From: Amoebidium appalachense
Lineage: Eukaryota; Protista; Ichthyosporea
Length of the DNA stretch: 64,000 nt
Direction: 5' to 3'
NCBI GenBank assembly: GCA_963693365.1
Contig: CAVNZM010000012.1
Span: forward strand, 5,156,389-5,220,388
In this document: one piece after another, positions 2,964 through 64,000 of the stretch
How positions within the stretch are numbered: the first letter of the stretch is position 1
Layout of the letters: the number at the start of each line of letters is the position of its first letter
The notes under the pieces: model-generated
The model's database searches: none
The model's input: only the letters and a program-made list of their open reading frames with translations
What the model was told of the DNA's origin: nothing
Made by a program: the position numbers and the translations under genes

Positions 2964-23199
<20,236 letters not shown>

Positions 23200-33392: not shown

Positions 33393-47580
<14,188 letters not shown>

Positions 47581-52423: not shown

Positions 52424-53450
52424 TATGTAATAGGGGTGTCAGATACTACGATGGCGCTCATTGTTGCCTAGCAAGTACATATGTCACTGGCTGCATTTGA
52501 TTGGCTGTGCTGGAAAACGCAGTAGGCCGTCGAATGTGGCTGGGCCTCCGGTAATGTCCACGCAATAAAAAGTGTGTAAACCCCATGGTGCTATGCATCA
52601 GACTGTATGGTGCTATGCATCAGACTGCATTGGACACAAGGCCAAGTCGAGCTCCAAGTTTATTTATTATGGTGGTGTGCGAATATGGACTGTAAGTGTA
52701 TAGCCGTGTATACCCATCTGACACAAAAAACTGAACATCATTCATTGACGTCACCTTATCAATTGCAACCGTTCATCCACACTGTGCCACATACAGATCC
52801 ACGTACAGAGTTTCGTACAGAGTGCACGCACGCGCCAGTTGGTATGTACGTGACGTTCCCCAGTGACTCCAACAAAACCCCGTTCCCCCCGCGGCACACC
52901 GGAATTCATTTTTTTTTATAATGACTTTATTGATAATAATTATGCTCATCAAAAGAGAAGCATGGGAGATATCACAGATATATATCTTAGAGAAGATTTC
53001 GGAATGTCCAAAAATGCCTTACTCTCGGATACGGAGGAGATAAAGACTGACTTTATTGATATGCTCATCAAAAGAGAAGCATGGGAGATATCAACCGGAA
53101 TTCATGTAACTGCATGCGCAGTCATGTTGGTGATGTCACAGGTGACAACCAGTAACTGTTGGTCATGTGATCGATAGGTCAATTCATTCAACTCAATTGA
53201 CTCCAACACGGTACACTCCTACAGCCACCCCCACACGTAAAAGGGCTGATGCAGATAAGCAGATTAATGCACAATAAAGCTTCCATATTCCTGCTAGAGC
53301 CCGATTTTTCGCTTGTATCTCAGGGCCAGGAATCGTTACCTTATGAAATTCAGAAAATTATATGAAAATAATCTTTAACCGAGATTTGTACGCTTGGTCG
53401 TGGGGTTCATGTATTGGGAGGTTGCTAAATGAACTTCAGTTTATTCAGAT

Positions 53451-53527
53451 GAGGTCGCATGGAAACCAGGGAGGGTGGGTAGAAACCAGCTGGTTTCCCC
53501 CCATCCTCCCGGTTTCCATGCGACCTC
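53451..53527. repeat. 77-bp imperfect palindrome/hairpin
   Basis: Outer arms gaggtcgcatggaaacc ... ggtttccatgcgacctc; inner gaaaccag|ctggtttc centred on CAGCTG. Confidence 0.9.
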
Positions 53528-53810
53528 GACAAATTTTCTAAAAACCCATCGCACTAGACTATTGGCGATGTGTCCAATCAAACATCAATGAATGCAGCAC
53601 TGCAGGCTGCTACGGATTTTTTCCGGGGTGCCACCGTACATAGAAACATCAATATTTAAGTAAATCAGCCTTTTGAAACCCAGCAGGATAATAAGGAAAA
53701 TTAAATATACAACACTTCACAAATAATATTTTTAGTGACTATGTAAACAAGACTGGTTCTGGATTATGCAAATAAATACAGTAGACTAAGCGAGTTCTCG
53801 CGTACAAACC

Positions 53811-53964
53811 GAGTCATATTTACCTCGGTCAGCTTGCCTCCATCAGAGTTCACAGGCCTCGTCGGGTGGGTTAATGACCTCCGCACCTTCGGTGCGTCGG
53901 TCATGAACCCACCCGACTCGGCCTGTGAACTCTGATTTCGGCAGCTGACCTCGGTATATGACTC
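53811..53964 (-). repeat. 154-bp imperfect hairpin with regularly spaced TC/TC (GA/GA on minus strand) mismatches and a TTC (GAA) triloop
   Basis: Arms pair as gagtcata/tatgactc, tacc/ggta, ggtcagct/agctgacc, gcc/ggc, atcagagttcacaggcc/ggcctgtgaactctgat, gtcgggtgggtt/aacccacccgac, atgacc/ggtcat and cgcacc/ggtgcg. Confidence 0.95.
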
Positions 53965-54188
53965 TTGACTCAGACTAATACCTATGTACCTTCGACGAGA
54001 CGAGAAGACACTATCAATCGACCTAGCTTTAATTAATATCCAATGGTTAGCTATCTCTTAAATTTTGTAATTTGATTTGCTTCATTCTGATTGGTTGTCA
54101 CACCGCGGGATTTCCCGATTGTTCTTCCAATGACATTTTCTATCACTATCGACAGTTCTCCAATATTAGAACAGAAAACGGTTTATAC

Positions 54189-54285
54189 CCAGATGGCCAG
54201 ATGGCCAGATCAAATTCAGTCTGTGAGCAGGGGGGGGGGGATCCACCTGAAGTCAAAACAATCTGGCCATCTGGCCATGTGGCCA
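54189..54285. repeat. Inverted pair of short 8-bp tandem repeats
   Basis: ccagatggccagatggccagat ... atctggccatctggccatgtgg. Confidence 0.75.
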
Positions 54286-54745
54286 TAGAATAGATTAGCA
54301 TGTAAGGCACTGGCTGCCACCACTGGGGGCCGTGGTTCCGGCAGGAGGGGGGGCACACGTGCAGGGGAGGCAGGGGGTCGGGGGAGGCACACGTGCACAG
54401 GAGGCTGGGGAGAGTGGGGGAACCATGGTTGTGTGATACTATCTATCCCCCATGTATGGCTGAGTTAAGACCATTTGTTCATGTAGCACGATCTTCTAGC
54501 ATGCACGTGTTGGAATGCCACCACTGGGGGGCCTGGTTCCGGCAGGCAGGGGAGCAGGGGAGGCACCCAGTGTGTGGGTGTGCATATGGCAGGGGAGCAG
54601 GGGGGCAGGGGAGCAGGGGGGCAGGGGGGCTGGGGGGCAGGGGGGCTGGGGGGCAGGGGGGCTGGGGAGACTGGCATGCCACTCACGGGGAGGATAGTGT
54701 ATGTTGGCACGTGTGGGTGTGTGGGTGATAAAGGCAGAAGCCACA

Positions 54746-55536
54746 ACACGTGTGGTGTCTAAACAGCCTATAGGCATGCTCCGTGTGCAGGCACCAATTT
54801 CTACCCTCTTCTGGTTGGTGCCAAGAGGCAGCGCCCTACACGTGTGGTGTCTAAACAGCCTATAGGCATGCTCCGTGTGCAGGCACCAATTTCTACCCTC
54901 TTCTGGTTGGTGCCAAGAGGCAGCGCCCTACACGTGTGGTGTCTAAACAGCCTATAGGCATGCTCCGTGTGCAGGCACCAATTTCTACCCTCTTCTGGTT
55001 GGTGCCAAGAGGCAGCGCCCTACACGTGTGGTGTCTAAACAGCCTATAGGCATGCTCCGTGTGCAGGCACCAATTTCTACCCTCTTCTGGTTGGTGCCAA
55101 GAGGCAGCGCCCTACACGTGTGGTGTCTAAACAGCCTATAGGCATGCTCCGTGTGCAGGCACCAATTTCTACCCTCTTCTGGTTGGTGCCAAGAGGCAGC
55201 GCCCTACACGTGTGGTGTCTAAACAGCCTATAGGCATGCTCCGTGTGCAGGCACCAATTTCTACCCTCTTCTGGTTGGTGCCAAGAGGCAGCGCCCTACA
55301 CGTGTGGTGTCTAAACAGCCTATAGGCATGCTCCGTGTGCAGGCACCAATTTCTACCCTCTTCTGGTTGGTGCCAAGAGGCAGCGCCCTACACGTGTGGT
55401 GTCTAAACAGCCTATAGGCATGCTCCGTGTGCAGGCACCAATTTCTACCCTCTTCTGGTTGGTGCCAAGAGGCAGCGCCCTACACGTGTGGTGTCTAAAC
55501 AGCCTATAGGCATGCTCCGTGTGCAGGCACCAATTT
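54746..55536. repeat. Tandem array of ~8.6 identical 92-bp units
   Basis: Unit acacgtgtggtgtctaaacagcctataggcatgctccgtgtgcaggcaccaatttctaccctcttctggttggtgccaagaggcagcgccct starts at 54746, 54838, 54930 ... 55482. Confidence 0.97.
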
Positions 55537-55829: not shown

Positions 55830-57050
55830 ATGGATTCTTGGAAAGAGGAGCTTCAACAGCTGCAGAAGCGCTTTGATTTTCTGTACACGGACCATTCGTC
55901 TCGCTTAACGGCCCTGCACACCGACGTCACCAGCCTCCGCACCGACCTCACCAGCCTCCGCAGTCAAGTGACCAATGAGAATGCTGCGCGTACCCCCCGA
56001 CCCCCCCAACCCCAGCCCTCTGATGTAGAGGCACGACTGAGGGCAGCCGAAGAGCAGATCAAGACCCTGCAGGCCGAGCTTGCCAGCCTGCAACGGGCTG
56101 CAGCACCCCGTCGGGATGGCCAGGTGGCCTATGAAAACTACATTTTCAGTGGCCCTCGCAAGACTACCATTGCCGCCAACACCACCACTGTGACTGCTGA
56201 CCCCACCCCTGCCGCCAACACCACCACTGTGACTGCCCCCACCCCTGCCGCAAAGACCACCCCTGTGACTGCCCCCACCCCTGTCGCAAAGACCGCCCCT
56301 GTGACTGCCCCCACCCCTGCCGCAAAGACCACCCCTGTGACTGCCCCCACCCCTGTCGCAAAGACCGCCCCTGTGACTGCCCCCACCCCTGCCGCCAAGA
56401 CCACTCCTGCCAAGACCACCCCTACCACCAAGACCACTCCTGCCAAGACCACCCCTACCACCAAGACCACTCCTGCCAAGACCACCCCTACCACCAAGAC
56501 CACTCCTGCCAAGACCACCCCTGCCGCTAAGCCCAGGCCCAAGCACACCAAAACACCTGAGACTTCGTTGCATGACCATACGATGGACCTCGATGCACAG
56601 CTAACTAGTGTGAGGGGGGAGCTCCAGAATGCTCGAGAGCGTGTCAAAGAGGCAAAGGCGGCTGAAGATGAAATGGCGGAGGGCCTGGCCATTGCTGCTG
56701 TGTGTGCAGCCCAAAACACCATAAAAAGCATCCGAAGGAAGATTCTGCGACGGGAGAAGAACTTGAAGGCATACACAGGTGGTAATGAGTCTGTCTCTTC
56801 ACCTGCCTCACCCGCCAAACGCGTCCATGATCAATGTGATTGGGACTCAGATGAAGCATTCAACCCCAAGCGGCTCAAACGACGGGCAAATCAGGTACTC
56901 GATGATATGACAGATGACGAATCTGCGTCTGATCGTGAGTCGGTCGTGTATGACCGCAAACCTGAACCCAAACATAAACAAACTGAAGAAATTCCCCTCA
57001 TTGATCTTGACCAGGAAGAGTTTGACCAGTATGAGCATGAGATGTACTGA
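55830..57050 (+). CDS. Intronless 406-aa orphan: N-terminal coiled coil, T/A/P/K repeats (TAPTPAAKTTPV, KTTPTT), second coiled coil, basic NLS-like motifs and acidic tail
   Basis: Long ORF with an ATG in good context, an upstream TATA box and a T-rich 3' flank; in-frame 36-bp and 33-bp repeats. No family recognised. Confidence 0.75.
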   Translation: MDSWKEELQQLQKRFDFLYTDHSSRLTALHTDVTSLRTDLTSLRSQVTNENAARTPRPPQPQPSDVEARLRAAEEQIKTLQAELASLQRAAAPRRDGQVAYENYIFSGPRKTTIAANTTTVTADPTPAANTTTVTAPTPAAKTTPVTAPTPVAKTAPVTAPTPAAKTTPVTAPTPVAKTAPVTAPTPAAKTTPAKTTPTTKTTPAKTTPTTKTTPAKTTPTTKTTPAKTTPAAKPRPKHTKTPETSLHDHTMDLDAQLTSVRGELQNARERVKEAKAAEDEMAEGLAIAAVCAAQNTIKSIRRKILRREKNLKAYTGGNESVSSPASPAKRVHDQCDWDSDEAFNPKRLKRRANQVLDDMTDDESASDRESVVYDRKPEPKHKQTEEIPLIDLDQEEFDQYEHEMY

Positions 57051-57449
57051 TTTGATTGGTCGACTAAGTGGCATTCTCTTTTGATTTGTATTTGAATTGA
57101 TCGGTCTTGATTTATTTGTTTCTTTTCTCTTTTAGTTTGTATTTGAATATACTCGGTCCAAGTTGATTTGTTCTTTGTAATCTGACTAGACTATCATGTA
57201 CGTACGTACTCTTTTTCTATACAATCACTTGTGTTCATATTAAAGGATTCTGTGTACGTGGACCACGGAAACATACACCATTTTTTGCAGTGCTTCATGC
57301 TATAAAATAACCATGAGAGACACAAACAAATACACTAAGTGTGTACACGTCTACCCATAGGCCCAAGTGTTGACATGTCTGCCCACAGTTCCCTAAGGCT
57401 TAAAGCACACATCTGCCTGTATGCCATAAACTTTACTTTCACCACAAGA

Positions 57450-58480
57450 CACCCACCTAAGTACACTCTGCACCACCCTAAGTACACTGTGGTGCACAGC
57501 CCCACCCTAAGTACACGTCTGCACCACCCTAAGTACACTGTGGTGCACAGCCCCACCCTAAGTACACGTCTGCACCACCCTAAGTACACTGTGGTGCACA
57601 GCCCCACCCTAAGTACACGTCTGCACCACCCTAAGTACACTGTGGTGCACAGCCCCACCCTAAGTACACGTCTGCACCACCCTAAGTACACCTCTGCACC
57701 ACCCTAAGTACACGTCTGCACCACCCTAAGTACACCTCTGCACCACCCTAAGTACACCTCTGCACCACCCTAAGTACACCTCTGCACAGCCCTAAGTACA
57801 CCTCTGCACAGCCCCACCCTAAGTACACTCTGCACCACCCTAAGTACACGTCTGCACCACCCTAAGTACACTCTGCACAGCCCCACCCTAAGTACACGTC
57901 TGCACCACCCTAAGTACACTCTGCACAGCCCCACCCTAAGTACACGTCTGCACCACCCTAAGTACACGTCTGCACCACCCTAAGTACACCTCTGCACCAC
58001 CCTAAGTACACGTCTGCACCACCCTAAGTACACCTCTGCACCACCCTAAGTACACGTCTGCACCACCCTAAGTACACCTCTGCACCACCCTAAGTACACG
58101 TCTGCACCACCCTAAGTACACGTCTGCACCACCCTAAGTACACCTCTGCACCACCCTAAGTACACGTCTGCACCACCCTAAGTACACCTCTGCACCACCC
58201 TAAGTACACGTCTGCACCACCCTAAGTACACTCTGCACAGCCCCACCCTAAGTACACGTCTGCACCACCCTAAGTACACTCTGCACAGCCCCACCCTAAG
58301 TACACTCTGCACCACCCTAAGTACACGTCTGCACAGCCCCACCCTTTAAGTACACGTCTGCACAGCCCCACCCTTTAAGTACACGTCTGCACCATCCTAA
58401 GTACACGTCTGCACAGCCCCACCCTTTAAGTACACGTCTGCACAGCCCCACCCTAAGTACACTCAATGTTAAGTACACCT
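57450..58480. repeat. Modular minisatellite built on a 21-28 bp unit (caccaccctaagtacac[g/c]tctg and variants)
   Basis: About 40 copies of the core cctaagtacac, with variant spacers (gtctg, ctctg, tctg, tgtggtg; caccacc vs cacagccccacc) arranged in higher-order blocks. Confidence 0.95.
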
Positions 58481-58541
58481 GCACACAAGCACTAGAATAG
58501 CCTGAGGCTACTCTCTAATAACGGCCCCTTTTTTCACCGTG

Positions 58542-59288
58542 TCAAGGCCAGTTGATATCTCCGTCTGAAGACTCGGAAGACGCCCCAGAGCTGCTGGCTT
58601 CACTGGCTCGTGCCCTTTTCTGCTGTCCCCGTGTCAAGGTCTTGGACTCGGAAGACGAGTGCTCCTCAGAAGACGAGTACTCCTCAGGTCCCCATAGCAA
58701 GGTCTTGAACCAAGGAGGCACTTCCTCCTGTACCTCCGACCCAGAGCTTTTGACTTCCTCTCGTGTCCTCTTCTGCTGTCTTCGTGGTTTCTCCCGTGTC
58801 TTGGACCCCTGTGTGAAGGTCTTCCAGTTGAACCAAGGAGGCACTGGAGAATGGTGCTCCTCCTCCGACCCAGAGCTTCTGACTTCCTCTCGTGTCCTCT
58901 TCTGCTGTCTTCGTGGTTTCTCCCGTGTCTTGGACCCCTGTGTGATGTGCAAACGTGAGCGCTGCAGGGGCAGGGGGGCCAAGTCCACGGGATAGGAGCT
59001 GCCATGCTCGCCAGCACGAAGTGCAGGTGCCGCTGCCAGGACAGGGGGTGCCACGGTCAGCGCTGGGGGTGCCACGGTCAGCGCTGGGGGTGCCACGGTC
59101 AGCGCTGGGGGTGCCACGGTTGCTGCTGTAGTGGTGCGCTTGCTTAAAGCCATGCGGGCGTGCCTAGCAAGGGCGCACGCGAAACGGGTCTGGGTGTCCC
59201 GCAGGACCTTTGCATCCTCCTCCAAAGTCTTGAGTCTTGTCTCTATTTTTTTAGCGCGCCTTTCTAGATCTTTGATGTTAGAACTCAT
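58542..59288 (-). CDS. Intronless orphan: N-terminal coiled coil, (TVAPPAL)n repeat, duplicated basic segment and Ser/acidic tail
   Basis: Part of ORF 58542-59408; likely start MSSNIKDLERR at 59288 (alternative Met at 59342). Contains in-frame 21-bp repeats and a duplication of TQGSKTREKPRRQQKRTREEV.SSGSE..VPPWF. Confidence 0.65.
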   Translation of the reverse strand: MSSNIKDLERRAKKIETRLKTLEEDAKVLRDTQTRFACALARHARMALSKRTTTAATVAPPALTVAPPALTVAPPALTVAPPVLAAAPALRAGEHGSSYPVDLAPLPLQRSRLHITQGSKTREKPRRQQKRTREEVRSSGSEEEHHSPVPPWFNWKTFTQGSKTREKPRRQQKRTREEVKSSGSEVQEEVPPWFKTLLWGPEEYSSSEEHSSSESKTLTRGQQKRARASEASSSGASSESSDGDINWP

Positions 59289-59340
59289 TTTCGTGACAGT
59301 TGGATGTACGTTGTGTGCCAAGGGAGAAGTTGTCACTGAC

Positions 59341-59871
59341 ATGTACACCCCCGCCCTCGAATACTGCCCCTTGTGCAGCTGCCGCCGCCGCCCAGCTTCG
59401 CCCGGCACACCCCAGGCCTACGTGGCCGCCGACCTCCCCCTCCGCTTCCATTCCTGTCCTTGTCCACACTGCGTGCACGTCTTTGCACGCCCTGCCACCG
59501 TGCTCGTGTGTGCCGACTGCCACACACTCGTCCTGCAGCATCAGCATGGTGTGGACGGCTGCGCGAGGAGGCTTGTTGGCCGTAGACGACAGCTGCGACC
59601 GGGTTTGGCCCCCCGAAGACTTGTTCCTGCCCCACAAGCCCACACAAACACCCATTTTTCTCCCCAACCCCCACCATGCACATCTCTTCCACCAAGCCCA
59701 TACCCATCCCCAAGCCCGCTCACACCGCCTGTTAAAGATACTGTATGCAAGAATTTAGAAGTTGAAGACCCCAACTCCCCCCAGGGTGAGTGGTTGTGGA
59801 TGCTTTTCCCCTCTGGGTGGCAAAATGTGTGGGTGCCGGCCACCCCGGGCACCCCGCAAAATAAATCGTGA
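59341..59871 (+). CDS. Possible small Cys-rich (zinc ribbon-like) orphan protein
   Basis: From ATG 59341: CPLC...CPCPHCVHVFARPATVLVCADCHTLVLQ, loosely like the eS27 zinc ribbon. Divergent from the neighbouring ORF. Confidence 0.35.
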   Translation: MYTPALEYCPLCSCRRRPASPGTPQAYVAADLPLRFHSCPCPHCVHVFARPATVLVCADCHTLVLQHQHGVDGCARRLVGRRRQLRPGLAPRRLVPAPQAHTNTHFSPQPPPCTSLPPSPYPSPSPLTPPVKDTVCKNLEVEDPNSPQGEWLWMLFPSGWQNVWVPATPGTPQNKS

Positions 59872-59892
59872 AGACTTGGCATCTGTACATCT

Positions 59893-59925
<33 letters not shown>

Positions 59926-60495
59926 ACACACACACACCACACACACACCACACACACACACCACACACATGCACACACACACACACACCACACACACACA
60001 CACACACACCACACACACACCACACACATGCACACCACACACACCACACACACCACACACACACACCACACACACACACACCACACACGCACACACACAC
60101 CACACACACACACCACACACATGCACACCACACACACACCACACACACACACACCACACACGCATACGCACATGCATGTTTCAGATACGTCCAAGTGTGG
60201 TTATGTATTGACTTTTGTGTTTATTCACTCTTGCTGTCGTTAAGTCTCGCTTACATGTTAGGGTTCAGATACATAGATGATGTTTGCACCAAATCGTGCT
60301 TATGAGAAGACATCGTAAGAAACAAACGATGGGATATTTGCGCTGGTTTGCACATTTGCACATGTATGGGTTGGGGCATGTCATAGCATCTCACATTGTG
60401 GTACTTGTACACACTGCCCTGTCTATATTTGTCTATTGGGTATAGCATTCCTCTCTCCCATACACACTCACCCACCCAGCAATCACCCCACACCA

Positions 60496-61479
60496 CTATC
60501 CTGGTCGAATGCACACCCACACCTCATTCACCGCAACGGTGTTTTCTCCATTGCCTCCTATGACTACACGCAAAGGTTTCTCGTTGTCCTTAAATTGCAG
60601 TTGCCACAGCTGCTTGGAGGTGGCCTCGTCGGATGCGATGTGTATTTTAGAACCCTTGTTTGTTACTTGCACTATGACATGCTTCACGTTGTAGTAGATG
60701 TATGGGGGGTGCGGAGATCGATCGACAGACACCCAGATCTCGCACTGCTCTCCCGCTGTCTCCGACTGGGGGCTGCTTGTGGCTACCACCTGCTCCGTGA
60801 AGGCCACCTGGTCGTCGACGTCGACGGAACTGTGGTCCTCGGACACGAGCGGCTCGCGTGCTGCTTCGCACACCTGGCTGCTTGGGGGCGCTGCTGCTTT
60901 CTCCTTATCCGCTGCCTCCGTGGTCTCTTCCGTGTCCAAATCCGGAAAAGAGAGTGGTCGCCAGGGCGCATTGGGTTCGGGGTTGACTGCCACTGGTAGG
61001 CGCAGGGACGTGGGTTTTTTGGAGGCCCCCATCTTGTTTGGGCGTATGTTGCGCCCACATCTTTTTGGATTCGCCCCTGCCTTCCAATAAAATGCATCCT
61101 GTTGCTTTTGTACCACGCCGCTGGCCGCGGCACCCGAAGTCTTGTACGGGAGAATCCTGCGTAGCGGGATCTTGCCCGGTGGTGGTGGCCATGTTGTCTG
61201 CAACGGGTACACTCGCACGTCCTTGCTGCACAGGGGCGGTGCGTGCACAGCTGCAAGAGGGGGTTGAGAAGGCTGTGCATGCACGCAGTCGTCTTTGAGC
61301 GGTATTGCGCGTGCGGGTTTTGTGTTGGCGGGGAACGAGTGCATGTTGGCTGGGGGCGAGTGCATGTCGAATTCGCCGAAGACGGGAACGCCCATGAGCG
61401 CTGCCTCGCTGGCCGGTGTTGTCGCTTGGAAGAGCTTGTCGCGCAGGCGCCACAGGTTAACGTTTGGCTTGTGGTTCAT
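60496..61479 (-). CDS. Intronless 327-aa hypothetical protein
   Basis: ATG-initiated long ORF of non-repetitive composition with a globular-looking C-terminus. TATA-like (tataa) and CCAAT motifs lie upstream at ~61525-61555 on the minus strand. Confidence 0.55.
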   Translation of the reverse strand: MNHKPNVNLWRLRDKLFQATTPASEAALMGVPVFGEFDMHSPPANMHSFPANTKPARAIPLKDDCVHAQPSQPPLAAVHAPPLCSKDVRVYPLQTTWPPPPGKIPLRRILPYKTSGAAASGVVQKQQDAFYWKAGANPKRCGRNIRPNKMGASKKPTSLRLPVAVNPEPNAPWRPLSFPDLDTEETTEAADKEKAAAPPSSQVCEAAREPLVSEDHSSVDVDDQVAFTEQVVATSSPQSETAGEQCEIWVSVDRSPHPPYIYYNVKHVIVQVTNKGSKIHIASDEATSKQLWQLQFKDNEKPLRVVIGGNGENTVAVNEVWVCIRPG

Positions 61480-62046
61480 AGCTGCAAGTTTGCAAGACTG
61501 GCAGCATCCGAAGCAGTGATGGGGTTATATGGGTCCTATATCCAATTTGATTGGTCCCAGGCTTTGCCAGGGTGCGAAAGTGTCCTTCGGCGCAATAAAA
61601 TTGCAACCGAAATGAAACGAAATGAATAGGCTATAGAAGAATTAAATGTTGTGAAAGCCACAAGAATGGGAGGAACGCGGTCAATTTGATTTAACGAAAC
61701 AGACATCCCATTACATACAGGGTTTTTGTTTCAGGGTTCTCGATTCGGTTATAACCCTGACCGCGAGTCGCTTTTCCGAACTCTGAGTAGAAACTAAAAC
61801 AACAACCTGTTCAATAGGAAAACAATGGCAAAAATGTTCTTATAAATCGAGTTTAAATATTTCTGTTTTGTTTTCAAATTAATATTTCGGTTTTGTTTTC
61901 AAATTGGCGTTCACATCACATCAATACTGTATCATAACCAGTCAATTTTAAAATAACACAATTGCTGTATCTGAGCCAATCAGACGCTGCATGCCTTGGT
62001 TACAGATCCTTCGGTCATCTTCCACAGGAATACAAGACCCTCTATC

Positions 62047-62143
62047 CGATTGGACATCACGCTGATTGGTCGGCAACTCCAAACGTCTGATTGGTCAACG
62101 CGTCTGATTGGTCAACACGTCTGATTGGTCGGCGCGCTATTGG
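62047..62143 (+). promoter_or_regulatory. Cluster of six ATTGG (CCAAT) boxes, partly as an ~18-bp tandem repeat, upstream of the F-box ORF
   Basis: cgtctgattggtc occurs three times (62084-62130), plus gattggac, ctgattggtc and tattgg. Confidence 0.6.
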
Positions 62144-62219
62144 TGCGGTGGCTCTCAGGGAGGGGTATACCACAGCACAGCTTTCAAACTTCACTCTCCA
62201 TACGAGCGCGTTCATCACA

Positions 62220-63686
62220 ATGGGCGCCGATCAGTCCACCCTTTCTCCCAGCGCGCAACAGCTGGTCTTGGGCAACCACTACCTGCTTCTGTACATCTGC
62301 TCCTTCCTGGATGCACGCTCACGTCGCAGCATTGCGCTCACCTGCCGAGCGCTTCGCCACGTACACGAGGCAGAGCTGGCGCGCCCGAACAGCCACATGC
62401 GCGTCGACCTGTCCAAAGGTCCGAAGTCAATCGAGTTTGCCACGCGCGTCCGTGCCACCCACGTCCTTGCCACCACTGCTGACTACAAGCGCCTTGCCGA
62501 GCTTCCGCCCATGCGCTTCGTTCTCCACATGGTTCTTGATGAGTACCGGGACCTGGCCAACCACCATGCAAAGGCTGCCCATAACCACCGCTACACCAGC
62601 ACGGAGCCCATCTACCCAGACCTGTTTCCCAACCTCAAGGTCGCAGAGGTCAACTCCTTCAAGTGCCGCACCCCCCTTGTCGCCCCCTTCGCCTTGCTGG
62701 GCCGCGCTATCCAGAACCTGACGAGTCTGACCCTTGCCTTCTCTGCCACTCCCAGGCCCACACCTGGTGTAGTCATGGATCTTGCTGCGCTCGAAAACCT
62801 GGCCCATCTGCACGTCCACCTGTGCACGCGTGTGAACCCCTCGAACATCTACGCCATCCCCAGCACGGCGCTGCATGTGCCTGCGGGCCTTGTGAAACTG
62901 CATCTGGACTACCGCTTCCGCTCCATGTGCGGCCACCAGTACGGCTACGGCAGCGGCGGCTCCGCTCCCGGTATCCACAACATACACAACATCGAGTCCT
63001 GCGTCAACATGCGCAATGTGCACGTGTGCGTCTTTGGCATGGTGGTGTTCGACACCATCAATCGTGCCCACCGTGTCGAGCTGCTGTGCTCACAGGCCCG
63101 CGGCACGCTGCGCGGGTGCACCAGCGTCCAGATCGGCCAGGAGGTGCGCGACATCGAGATCACCACCACCGGGGACAGCGCCAGTGACTACCCAGGCAAC
63201 CGGCTCCTTGTGGCCGGCGCCCGCGAGTTCGAGTGCTTCCATCCCGCCCACAACTGGGCGCTGCAGGACGTCCATGTGCTGGAGATCATGCACGTGCCCC
63301 ACAGCCCGCGCGCGCTGGCGGCCATCGCGCAGGCCGTCAACCTGCGCTCGCTGACCGTCACGGCGCCCATGTTCAGCGACAGGGAGCTCGTCTACCACAT
63401 GCCCCCGACCATCGAGATGGTGAACTTCAGGCACGTGCGCCTGGTCGTGCTCGCAGACCCCAGCGGGCTCATCCGCCCGCTTGTGTTTTCCAGCGACTGC
63501 GACCTGGTCCTCTACAACCACTGGCTCCTCCGTGCGGCCGGGTTCCTGATGGACTCGAAGTGGGACCGGTTCATGACACGGCTGCTCCACATCACGCAGT
63601 GCGACATGCCGTGGGCGCTCGGGCGGAAGCTGCAGTACATGGGCGACAAGTCGTACAGGCACCTGCCGTTCCCCGAGGGGGTGTAG
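62220..63686 (+). CDS. Intronless F-box protein (~488 aa) with an N-myristoylation signal and LRR-like C-terminal region
   Basis: First ATG at 62220 gives MGADQS (MGxxxS), then LVLGNHYLLLYICSFLDARSRRSIALTCRALR (F-box-like), then LxxLxL segments (FPNLKVAEV, NLTSLTL, NLAHLHV, NLRSLTV). Strong C/G bias at third codon positions. Confidence 0.75.
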   Translation: MGADQSTLSPSAQQLVLGNHYLLLYICSFLDARSRRSIALTCRALRHVHEAELARPNSHMRVDLSKGPKSIEFATRVRATHVLATTADYKRLAELPPMRFVLHMVLDEYRDLANHHAKAAHNHRYTSTEPIYPDLFPNLKVAEVNSFKCRTPLVAPFALLGRAIQNLTSLTLAFSATPRPTPGVVMDLAALENLAHLHVHLCTRVNPSNIYAIPSTALHVPAGLVKLHLDYRFRSMCGHQYGYGSGGSAPGIHNIHNIESCVNMRNVHVCVFGMVVFDTINRAHRVELLCSQARGTLRGCTSVQIGQEVRDIEITTTGDSASDYPGNRLLVAGAREFECFHPAHNWALQDVHVLEIMHVPHSPRALAAIAQAVNLRSLTVTAPMFSDRELVYHMPPTIEMVNFRHVRLVVLADPSGLIRPLVFSSDCDLVLYNHWLLRAAGFLMDSKWDRFMTRLLHITQCDMPWALGRKLQYMGDKSYRHLPFPEGV

Positions 63687-63696
63687 GGGGGGGTGT

Positions 63697-64000
63697 TTAG
63701 AGCCCTAGACACTTAGTCATGTGATTGTAGTCGAATCTGTGGGCCTTGATGGTCACCTTGTTTGCACTTAGTTTCTTTGTACTTACTGGTTTCATCATGA
63801 ATATTTGCCGTAGAACTTTGCCAAATACACATAGGTTCATGTGAACCTCCATGTCTGACCCTTGTCGTCTCACCCATTCGGAGTACAGTGCATAGAGAGA
63901 CGATGTTTTTACGGGGGATCCCGGGGGGAACTTGTGCCTGTTGTGTTCGTCTTTCAAAAATTCAATAAAAAACTGCTTGACCAGCTCGTATCCCTTGCTG
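63697..64000 (-). CDS. C-terminal end of a probable D5-like primase-helicase (winged-helix tail), ORF open beyond the window edge
   Basis: The frame is open from 64000: SKGYELVKQFFIEFL...VKTSSLYALYSEWVRRQG...MNLCVFGKVL. This matches the s.LY..Y..W....G......FGk.L pattern at the end of NCLDV/Polinton/phage D5-P4 helicases. Only about 100 aa are visible. Confidence 0.5.
   Translation of the reverse strand, partial: SKGYELVKQFFIEFLKDEHNRHKFPPGSPVKTSSLYALYSEWVRRQGSDMEVHMNLCVFGKVLRQIFMMKPVSTKKLSANKVTIKAHRFDYNHMTKCLGL

Follow-up and report, generated by a model that had tools for sequence, protein, structure and literature searches.

A G·A-looped hairpin that terminates a non-autonomous transposon, probably of the CryptonA type, in a unicellular relative of animals

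Background

According to the main text of Kojima and Jurka (2011; PMC3212892), animal Cryptons have no terminal repeats, and the main text of the 2026 paper on the fungal Glomhoppers reports no detectable repeats (PMC13465315). Eulor5/6 are classed as ancient Cryptons, and the main text describing them makes no mention of a hairpin (PMC5753468). The present locus bears on how animal-type Cryptons have their ends recognised, these papers reporting no terminal repeats for them. Some Eulor repeats are annotated as hairpins in Repbase/Dfam. Among the tyrosine recombinases, comparable folded-strand systems are CTXphi attP(+) with XerCD and the integron attC sites with IntI (see also PMC2727003). 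In attC sites, unpaired features favour one strand over the other in recombination, and the homology for strand transfer comes from a conserved short word (PMC5027507). As regards DNA structure, C-GA-G blocks have been reported to form stable sheared G·A pairs by NMR (PMC10085684), and among 64 triloops GNA alone was reported to give a stable mini-hairpin, which current parameters fail to explain (PMC13037366).

In the article text of the Amoebidium genome paper (PMC11244446), recombinases come up solely in connection with giant repeats, and the word "Crypton" is absent; PMC12130899 had nothing further on the subject. In the text of the open-access literature searched, we found no description of G·A hairpin ends or of single-strand recombination for Cryptons; the novelty of what is described here may be affected by supplements 2-6 of PMC3212892 and by the supplements of PMC13465315.

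Results

Anatomy of the hairpin

The window, i.e., the whole 64,000-nt stretch of Amoebidium appalachense DNA analysed here, contains a 154-nt sequence that folds into a single long hairpin on either strand (Table 1), with -67.0 kcal/mol for the plus strand and -68.5 kcal/mol for the minus strand, a fold z of about -17 and no equally stable fold among 200 shuffles. It was the sole long non-microsatellite hairpin in a gapless scan of the window (score >14), a scan that overlooked the bulged 77-nt hairpin at 53451-53527. The sequence-only reading had described three TC/TC oppositions, one TCC/TTC opposition and a TTC loop on the plus strand, and fold and sequence confirm all of them, the TC/TC oppositions at 53880-81/53897-98, 53859-60/53918-19 and 53825-26/53951-52 and the TCC/TTC opposition at 53839-41/53937-39. 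Its list of interruptions was complete for these four symmetric loops and the triloop, and it lacked a single A·G mismatch (53873/53905) as well as a 1-nt and a 2-nt bulge, both on one arm. The description of the minus-strand contexts as mostly C-GA-G fits two GA/GA loops (C-GA-G/C-GA-G), while the innermost is C-GA-C/G-GA-G and the fourth loop is GGA/GAA. Under a rough null that was set up after the fact, the chance of the loop letters is ~1e-10.

Folding of both strands makes the minus strand the more stable one, as had been expected, by a margin of just 1.5 kcal/mol; because the folding program separates the strands by so little, the claim of a stability asymmetry rests on the published structures cited above. 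A UUCG-tetraloop reading of the plus strand is ruled out by the pairing register. An Rfam scan gave 18 matches, all far under the gathering threshold and mostly on both strands, with no microRNA or other family among them.

Table 1. Coordinates of the window element and its parts, and the recombinase-bearing elements of the same design
Feature	Position	Strand	Length	Details and basis
Non-autonomous mobile element	53385..53968 (equally 53383-53966, 2-nt GA overlap)	minus	584 nt	Empty site and repeat contigs
Terminal hairpin	53811..53964	minus		Stem of 64 pairs with four G·A loops, capped by a C-GAA-G triloop; element end 4 nt away
GAA triloop with C-G closing pair (plus strand TTC)	53888..53890	minus		Sequence; stability of GNA triloops as reported in PMC13037366
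Four G·A internal loops, full span	53825..53952	minus		Three GA/GA, one GGA/GAA; TC/TC positions in the text
Far terminus, TTTGTACGC	53385..53393	plus		Pairs with 53800-53808
Internal 9-mer, exact reverse complement of far terminus	53800..53808	plus		2 nt from hairpin foot
Deletion junction	53574..53577			4-nt overlap; about 424 extra bases in other copies
Private change of window copy	53873	plus		Other copies have C, which pairs with G53905
Second hairpin, G+C-rich	53451..53527		77 nt	No G·A loops; -37.3 and -37.4 kcal/mol, no strand difference
L344			2.3 kb	Both ends also present in six shorter relatives
L347			2.0 kb	Empty sites lie within a satellite
L346			1.6 kb	Two clean empty sites
L349	3930-5959		2.0 kb	Empty sites, 3-nt overlap; G·A strand reversed

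The hairpin lies at the end of a mobile element

Copies were compared in contigs of seven out of 16 listed sequencing runs (X1, X2, X6, X7, X8, X9 and X13) from five samples, one of the runs possibly being the window's own source; X10-X12, a small share, were excluded. An X8 contig at single-copy depth, with 110 nt on its shorter side, joins 53382 to 53967 and thus skips 584 nt, two letters being assignable to either flank. Repeat contigs begin at 53385 in X1, X2, X8, X13, X6 and X7 and finish at 53968 in X8 and X7. Together with the empty site, these limits place the hairpin at a distance of 4 nt from an end of an insertion that is young and present in few copies, and the hairpin is almost certainly the end of a mobile element. 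Depth over the element is about 5x that of the flank in X1 and X2 and about 10x in X8, which implies about 5-10 copies, and other copies have differing flanks on both sides. The left flanks of these copies end in GAGA or GG, and the empty site reads GA then CT. High-depth contigs in X8, X7 and X13 extend 2 letters beyond an element end without matching the window; the family may be 2 nt longer or have a strict target.

Relative to its family, whose length is about 1.0 kb, the 584-nt element is a copy with an internal deletion. Positions 1-100 and 525-717 of a 717-nt X1 contig map on either side of the deletion junction, and loose contig ends are found at both sides of it in all runs compared. 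Element copies are 97-99% alike. Those from X1, X2, X8, X6 and X7 carry the A>C change at 53873 that repairs the sole A·G mismatch, and no variant was listed at the G·A loops, bulges or triloop in the covering contigs (X8, X6 and X7). The earlier suggestion that the interruptions are not random is borne out by these two observations, in that they are features of the family rather than decay; with copies 97-99% alike, loops shared within the family show inheritance only. The stretch 53770-53810 recurs, with 3-5 differences, in two or more sister families of this host, which then continue into differing arms, CCTCG-rich over the 30 letters of each.

The ends of the element are not inverted copies of each other, and there is no target site duplication, only the 2-nt junction overlap. 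An ordinary MITE with terminal inverted repeats and a target site duplication, which had been named beforehand as the alternative to a structured site, is thereby ruled out. Family-specific patterns had no match in the viral contigs or metagenome contigs searched, and the window element has no DNA similarity to 390 compared loci or to G001 and G002, two prokaryote-collection records described below.

The far end of the element pairs beside the foot of the hairpin (Table 1). The chance of such a 9-mer near the foot, computed after the fact, is about 5e-5, and with a 10-nt mini-hairpin insert (53790-53799) looped out the pairing reaches 14 of 15 nt. In the lowest-energy fold of the whole minus strand the terminal 9 nt pair with the internal 9-mer and the ends are brought together; when the joined ends are folded, the hairpin is lengthened by a further stem and the junction lies in a small loop. 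Read from sequence as duplex DNA, the joined ends have no inverted binding sites. No circle or tandem junction of the window family was listed in the run contigs, which cannot show absence.

Several other features of the window were observed around the element. A CDC45 gene with 15 exons occupies 33393-47577 on the plus strand, its exons being 82-100% identical to an Amoebidium parasiticum protein and 54-84% to Ichthyophonus, which places the host as an Amoebidium-like ichthyosporean. A 1.46-kb repeat, probably another young transposon, is present in two 98%-identical copies of opposite orientation (19036-20492 and 41875-43352), the second within a CDC45 intron. High-copy dispersed repeats at 52900-53117 and 54077-54740, with depth of hundreds to thousands, flank the single-copy flanks of the element, and a 92-nt tandem array at 54746-55536 (8.6 copies, 100% identical, very high depth in the runs) is a satellite. 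The intron-poor ORF cluster at 55830-64000 comprises two coiled-coil ORFs, an unknown ORF, a weakly F-box-like 531-aa ORF and a weak D5-like fragment at the window edge, and may be a giant-virus remnant or a giant repeat of the type in PMC11244446. The 531-aa ORF had no homologue among 8000 scored candidates, and an atlas search gave F-box look-alikes only.

The same design in other repeat families

A pattern consisting of the loop and four CGAG words was found at at least 121 metagenome loci (about 820 estimated), and 26 of the 121 listed have a hairpin in which GA/GA loops occur at least twice. Within AT-rich loci, the 65 core matches form ten sequence-unrelated groups, whose neighbours include eukaryotic dynein and Ig-domain genes. 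In these metagenome families the G·A loops were partly selected by the pattern, and the element ends were unselected. The far end complements the segment after the hairpin in 23 of the 28 copies examined from animal-like repeat families; two of the remaining copies end elsewhere, and in three, all of one family, the end was not reached. In the largest group (18 of 30 copies) both sides had changed in 15 of 57 pairs (0 of 500 shuffles), and since the 18 copies belong to three related subfamilies, the independent covariation events are few; arm-to-arm copying in inverted repeats can also yield covariation without selection.

At locus L191 two copies stand head to tail, and the natural junction between them folds into the extended stem that had been predicted. 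In L190/L191 (about 3450-5440), and in L177, L178 and L188 as well, we observed a 0.9-1.1 kb element of the same design with a second small GA/GA-GAA motif. The L190/L191 record, which is multi-segment, filed as viral and has a BEN-domain ORF, is probably an insect polydnavirus. Near 235-250 of L151 two subfamilies meet directly, the hairpin end of one against the far end of the other, and a resemblance to the far end is seen in several targets, which together suggest insertion at junction-like sites.

Among 55 loci with the design pattern in viral contigs, one (L029) has a small two-loop hairpin. This is a 39-nt hairpin at 2999-3037 of a phage contig, with two GA/GA loops and a GAA triloop. 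In the prokaryote collection, 11 of 121 loci have at least 14 pairs; the long ones are AT-rich repeats, five of them in the two records that contain eukaryotic DNA. In Pfam searches, recombinase, Rep and Helitron domains were absent from 99 ORFs of 43 AT-rich metagenome loci, from 20 ORFs of four viral-record loci and from 83 short ORFs inside elements, and motif patterns gave nothing useful.

Recombinase-bearing elements with the same ends

The records G001 and G002 contain much eukaryotic DNA, including DUF3504 genes (34 matches in one record and 5 in the other), Helitrons, satellites and repeats of the design. From these records, 18 regions covering 20 DUF3504 sites were scanned for hairpins without any G·A preference. 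The 68 kb lying within 1.5 kb of a DUF3504 match contained 11 long hairpins, and the 120 kb farther off contained 2. A C-GNA-G loop was present in 7 of the 11 near hairpins (6 independent) and in neither of the far ones, and 6 of these 7 carry GA/GA on the GNA strand and none carries TC/TC there. No long GNA hairpin lies within 1.5 kb at 13 of the 20 DUF3504 sites.

Four G001 elements (L344, L347, L346 and L349; Table 1) enclose a DUF3504 ORF, as identified by Pfam, between the hairpin and a complementary far end. The catalytic motifs R-H-R-H-Y are kept in L347, and L344 has K for the second R; relatives carry DUF3504, QRICH1 and often Phage_integrase domains. The hairpin at L353 belongs to a 407-nt element beside a DUF3504 gene, not around it. 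L344, L346 and L347 share the polarity of the window element, whereas L349 is opposite: in L349, and probably in L343 (about 4700-6250), the G·A strand has the opposite orientation with respect to the terminus. The simple one-strand rule is therefore broken by two of the five hairpins linked to a recombinase, and L349 and L343 are possibly a second subtype.

Among the enzyme systems proposed from sequence at the outset, the Crypton-type tyrosine recombinase has gained ground, since there are elements of the same design with a CryptonA-type tyrosine recombinase inside them. The proposed co-occurrence with tyrosine recombinase or HUH genes was found for the DUF3504 genes of G001 and not for HUH genes, such a hairpin being absent from all nine Helitron Rep loci scanned, the tenth locus overlapping another, which is a weak control because only 1.5 kb was scanned on each side. 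The DUF3504 profile had no match in the window or in L056-L191.

Discussion

A folded single strand as the likely recombination site

The interpretation we favour, with a rough probability of 0.55, sees in the locus a non-autonomous element of CryptonA-like type that likely recombines at its folded single strand, in the manner of integron attC. Because the window element has no DNA similarity to DUF3504 elements and no recombinase partner was found for it, it is assigned to Cryptons by architecture, and shared end architecture as a CryptonA criterion was defined in the present analysis and does not come from the papers. We consider it quite likely that an enzyme of the CryptonA type moves the element, a tyrosine recombinase likely acting in trans, and if so, the folded strand is probably its substrate.

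Starting from the observed anatomy, i.e., the terminal position of the hairpin, the empty site, the several copies, the inherited G·A loops and the complementarity of the far end beside the foot, we infer the following sequence of events. When the DNA becomes single-stranded, for example on the lagging strand, the GAA loop and sheared G·A pairs would let the minus strand fold, and the TC strand would fold less readily. The far end would pair with the internal 9-mer, so that both element ends meet. The recombinase would then cut and join the folded strand and release a circle, whose junction would lie in a small internal loop between the 9-bp stem and the long stem. Finally, the folded circle could join a duplex target with which it shares only about 2 nt, and the product would be resolved by replication, as for attC.

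In its general form, the proposal would be that CryptonA elements, from unicellular holozoans to animals, use a structure-defined single-stranded site, the eukaryotic equivalent of integron attC, with the strand selected by tandem sheared G·A pairs together with a GNA triloop and the stem completed by the far end; such an arrangement would predate animals. We give this generalisation even odds.

Alternative explanations

We regard it as somewhat unlikely that the element is of the CryptonA type with a recombinase that acts on duplex DNA, the hairpin serving instead in second-strand priming on a single-stranded circle, in resisting single-strand-binding proteins or in cruciform extrusion. The classical Crypton model is indeed a duplex circle, as printed in PMC3212892, and GNA mini-hairpins are reported at single-strand priming sites, where CCGAAGG in RSF1010 ssiA equals the seven letters of the window loop (PMC13037366); the reversed polarity in L349 and L343 would also fit a role independent of the cut arm. 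Priming, however, needs no far-end pairing beside the hairpin foot, and wherever family ends are defined the junction lies in a small internal loop between two stems; the joined ends of the window element, read as a duplex, offer no inverted sites for binding.

A non-autonomous HUH element (Helitron2/Helentron or Replitron), with the 9-mers as asymmetric terminal inverted repeats and the hairpin as a rolling-circle terminal signal, seems to us quite unlikely. Helitron2, as described in PMC3627910, carries a repeat of 8-15 bp at 0-2 bp from its 5' end and the partner repeat just upstream of a 3' hairpin, and it has a T start and lacks a target site duplication, all of which are seen here on the plus strand, and HUH enzymes are reported to recognise single-stranded hairpins (PMC10288648). 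The partner repeat of Helitron2 is nevertheless 20-30 bp from the 3' end, and here it is 160 nt away; the empty site has no T run at the junction, and in place of the 6-nt terminal direct repeat of Replitron-1 there is only the 2-nt overlap. A 5' hairpin that includes the terminal repeat is a Helitron2 feature, and only a 3-bp stem is predicted here. The gene-bearing elements of the same architecture contain DUF3504, and the Helitron Rep loci lack the hairpin within the distance scanned.

That the loops are a mutational by-product without function is very improbable. Since TC is the reverse complement of GA, a 2-nt micro-inversion could make such a loop, and arm-to-arm copying could fix it; the likeness of the copies (97-99%) and the position of the outermost loop within a 3-bp mini-palindrome would agree with this origin. 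Inversions, however, predict GA/GA on either strand, whereas all four loops here and 6 of 6 exact cases in the unbiased set are on the GNA-loop strand. Ten sequence-unrelated groups share the design, though their loops were pattern-selected, and the sister families in this host have differing arms that are again CCTCG-rich over their 30 letters.

It is hardly credible that the hairpin is an ordinary MITE, given its non-inverted ends and 2-nt overlap, or an origin or attachment site of the neighbouring virus-like gene block, a tie suggested at first by the intron-poor ORF cluster with weak F-box-like and D5-like matches 1.9 kb away and abandoned here, since X8 lacks the 584-nt unit with the flanks joined, other copies at other loci are flanked differently, so that the element is independent of the cluster at 55.8-64 kb, and viral contigs contain no family-specific match.

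Significance

Overall, the feature is real and forms the structured end of a transposon that is non-autonomous and probably of the CryptonA type, its host being a unicellular holozoan; the link to the enzyme is indirect at this locus. What is new is the occurrence of the design in a non-animal host, an ichthyosporean and thus a unicellular relative of animals. The design allows Crypton ends to be found without sequence similarity, and the locus and comparison set give a defined substrate (hairpin, internal complement and junction loop) together with recombinase genes, and so a testable account of the way such elements move. If the proposal is true, eukaryotes have an integron-like, structure-specific recombinase, which could serve as a tool and would bear on where the ZMYM, QRICH1 and KCTD1 domains came from.

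Comparison with known systems

Helitron2/Helentron (PMC3627910) and Replitron (PMC10288648), as described in these papers, share asymmetric inverted repeats, a terminal hairpin, the lack of a target site duplication and orientation-specific ends with the window element. They differ in that the window hairpin is far longer, its partner repeat lies 160 nt from the end, and neither a T-run target nor a terminal direct repeat is found.

CryptonA elements are similar in having no terminal inverted repeats, no true target site duplication and short junction microhomology, for which the window element has its 2-nt overlap. They also have short non-coding derivatives (353-709 nt in supplement 1 of PMC3212892), and their reported autonomous size of 1.2-2.3 kb compares with 1.6-2.3 kb for the DUF3504 elements of the design. 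In contrast, the word "hairpin" is absent from the main texts on animal Cryptons, Eulor5/6 and Glomhoppers, in which the printed model is a duplex circle and the listed hosts are animals and fungi. The window element carries no gene and shows no DNA similarity within the 390 loci, G001 and G002.

As for integron attC, the GTTRRRY/RYYYAAC core does not occur at the window junction, which would read A then TTTGTAC, and the window element has no attI platform, dispersed insertion sites and a eukaryotic host. The strand bias here would come from tandem G·A loops and a GNA triloop, which are undescribed for attC. Single-strand recombination has been demonstrated for attC and would, by analogy, apply to the window element. 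The two nevertheless have in common a long imperfect hairpin whose strands differ in unpaired features, extra bases on one arm, an outer stem that is completed by the other end of the unit, a very short crossover homology, and a structure that is kept while the sequence is free.
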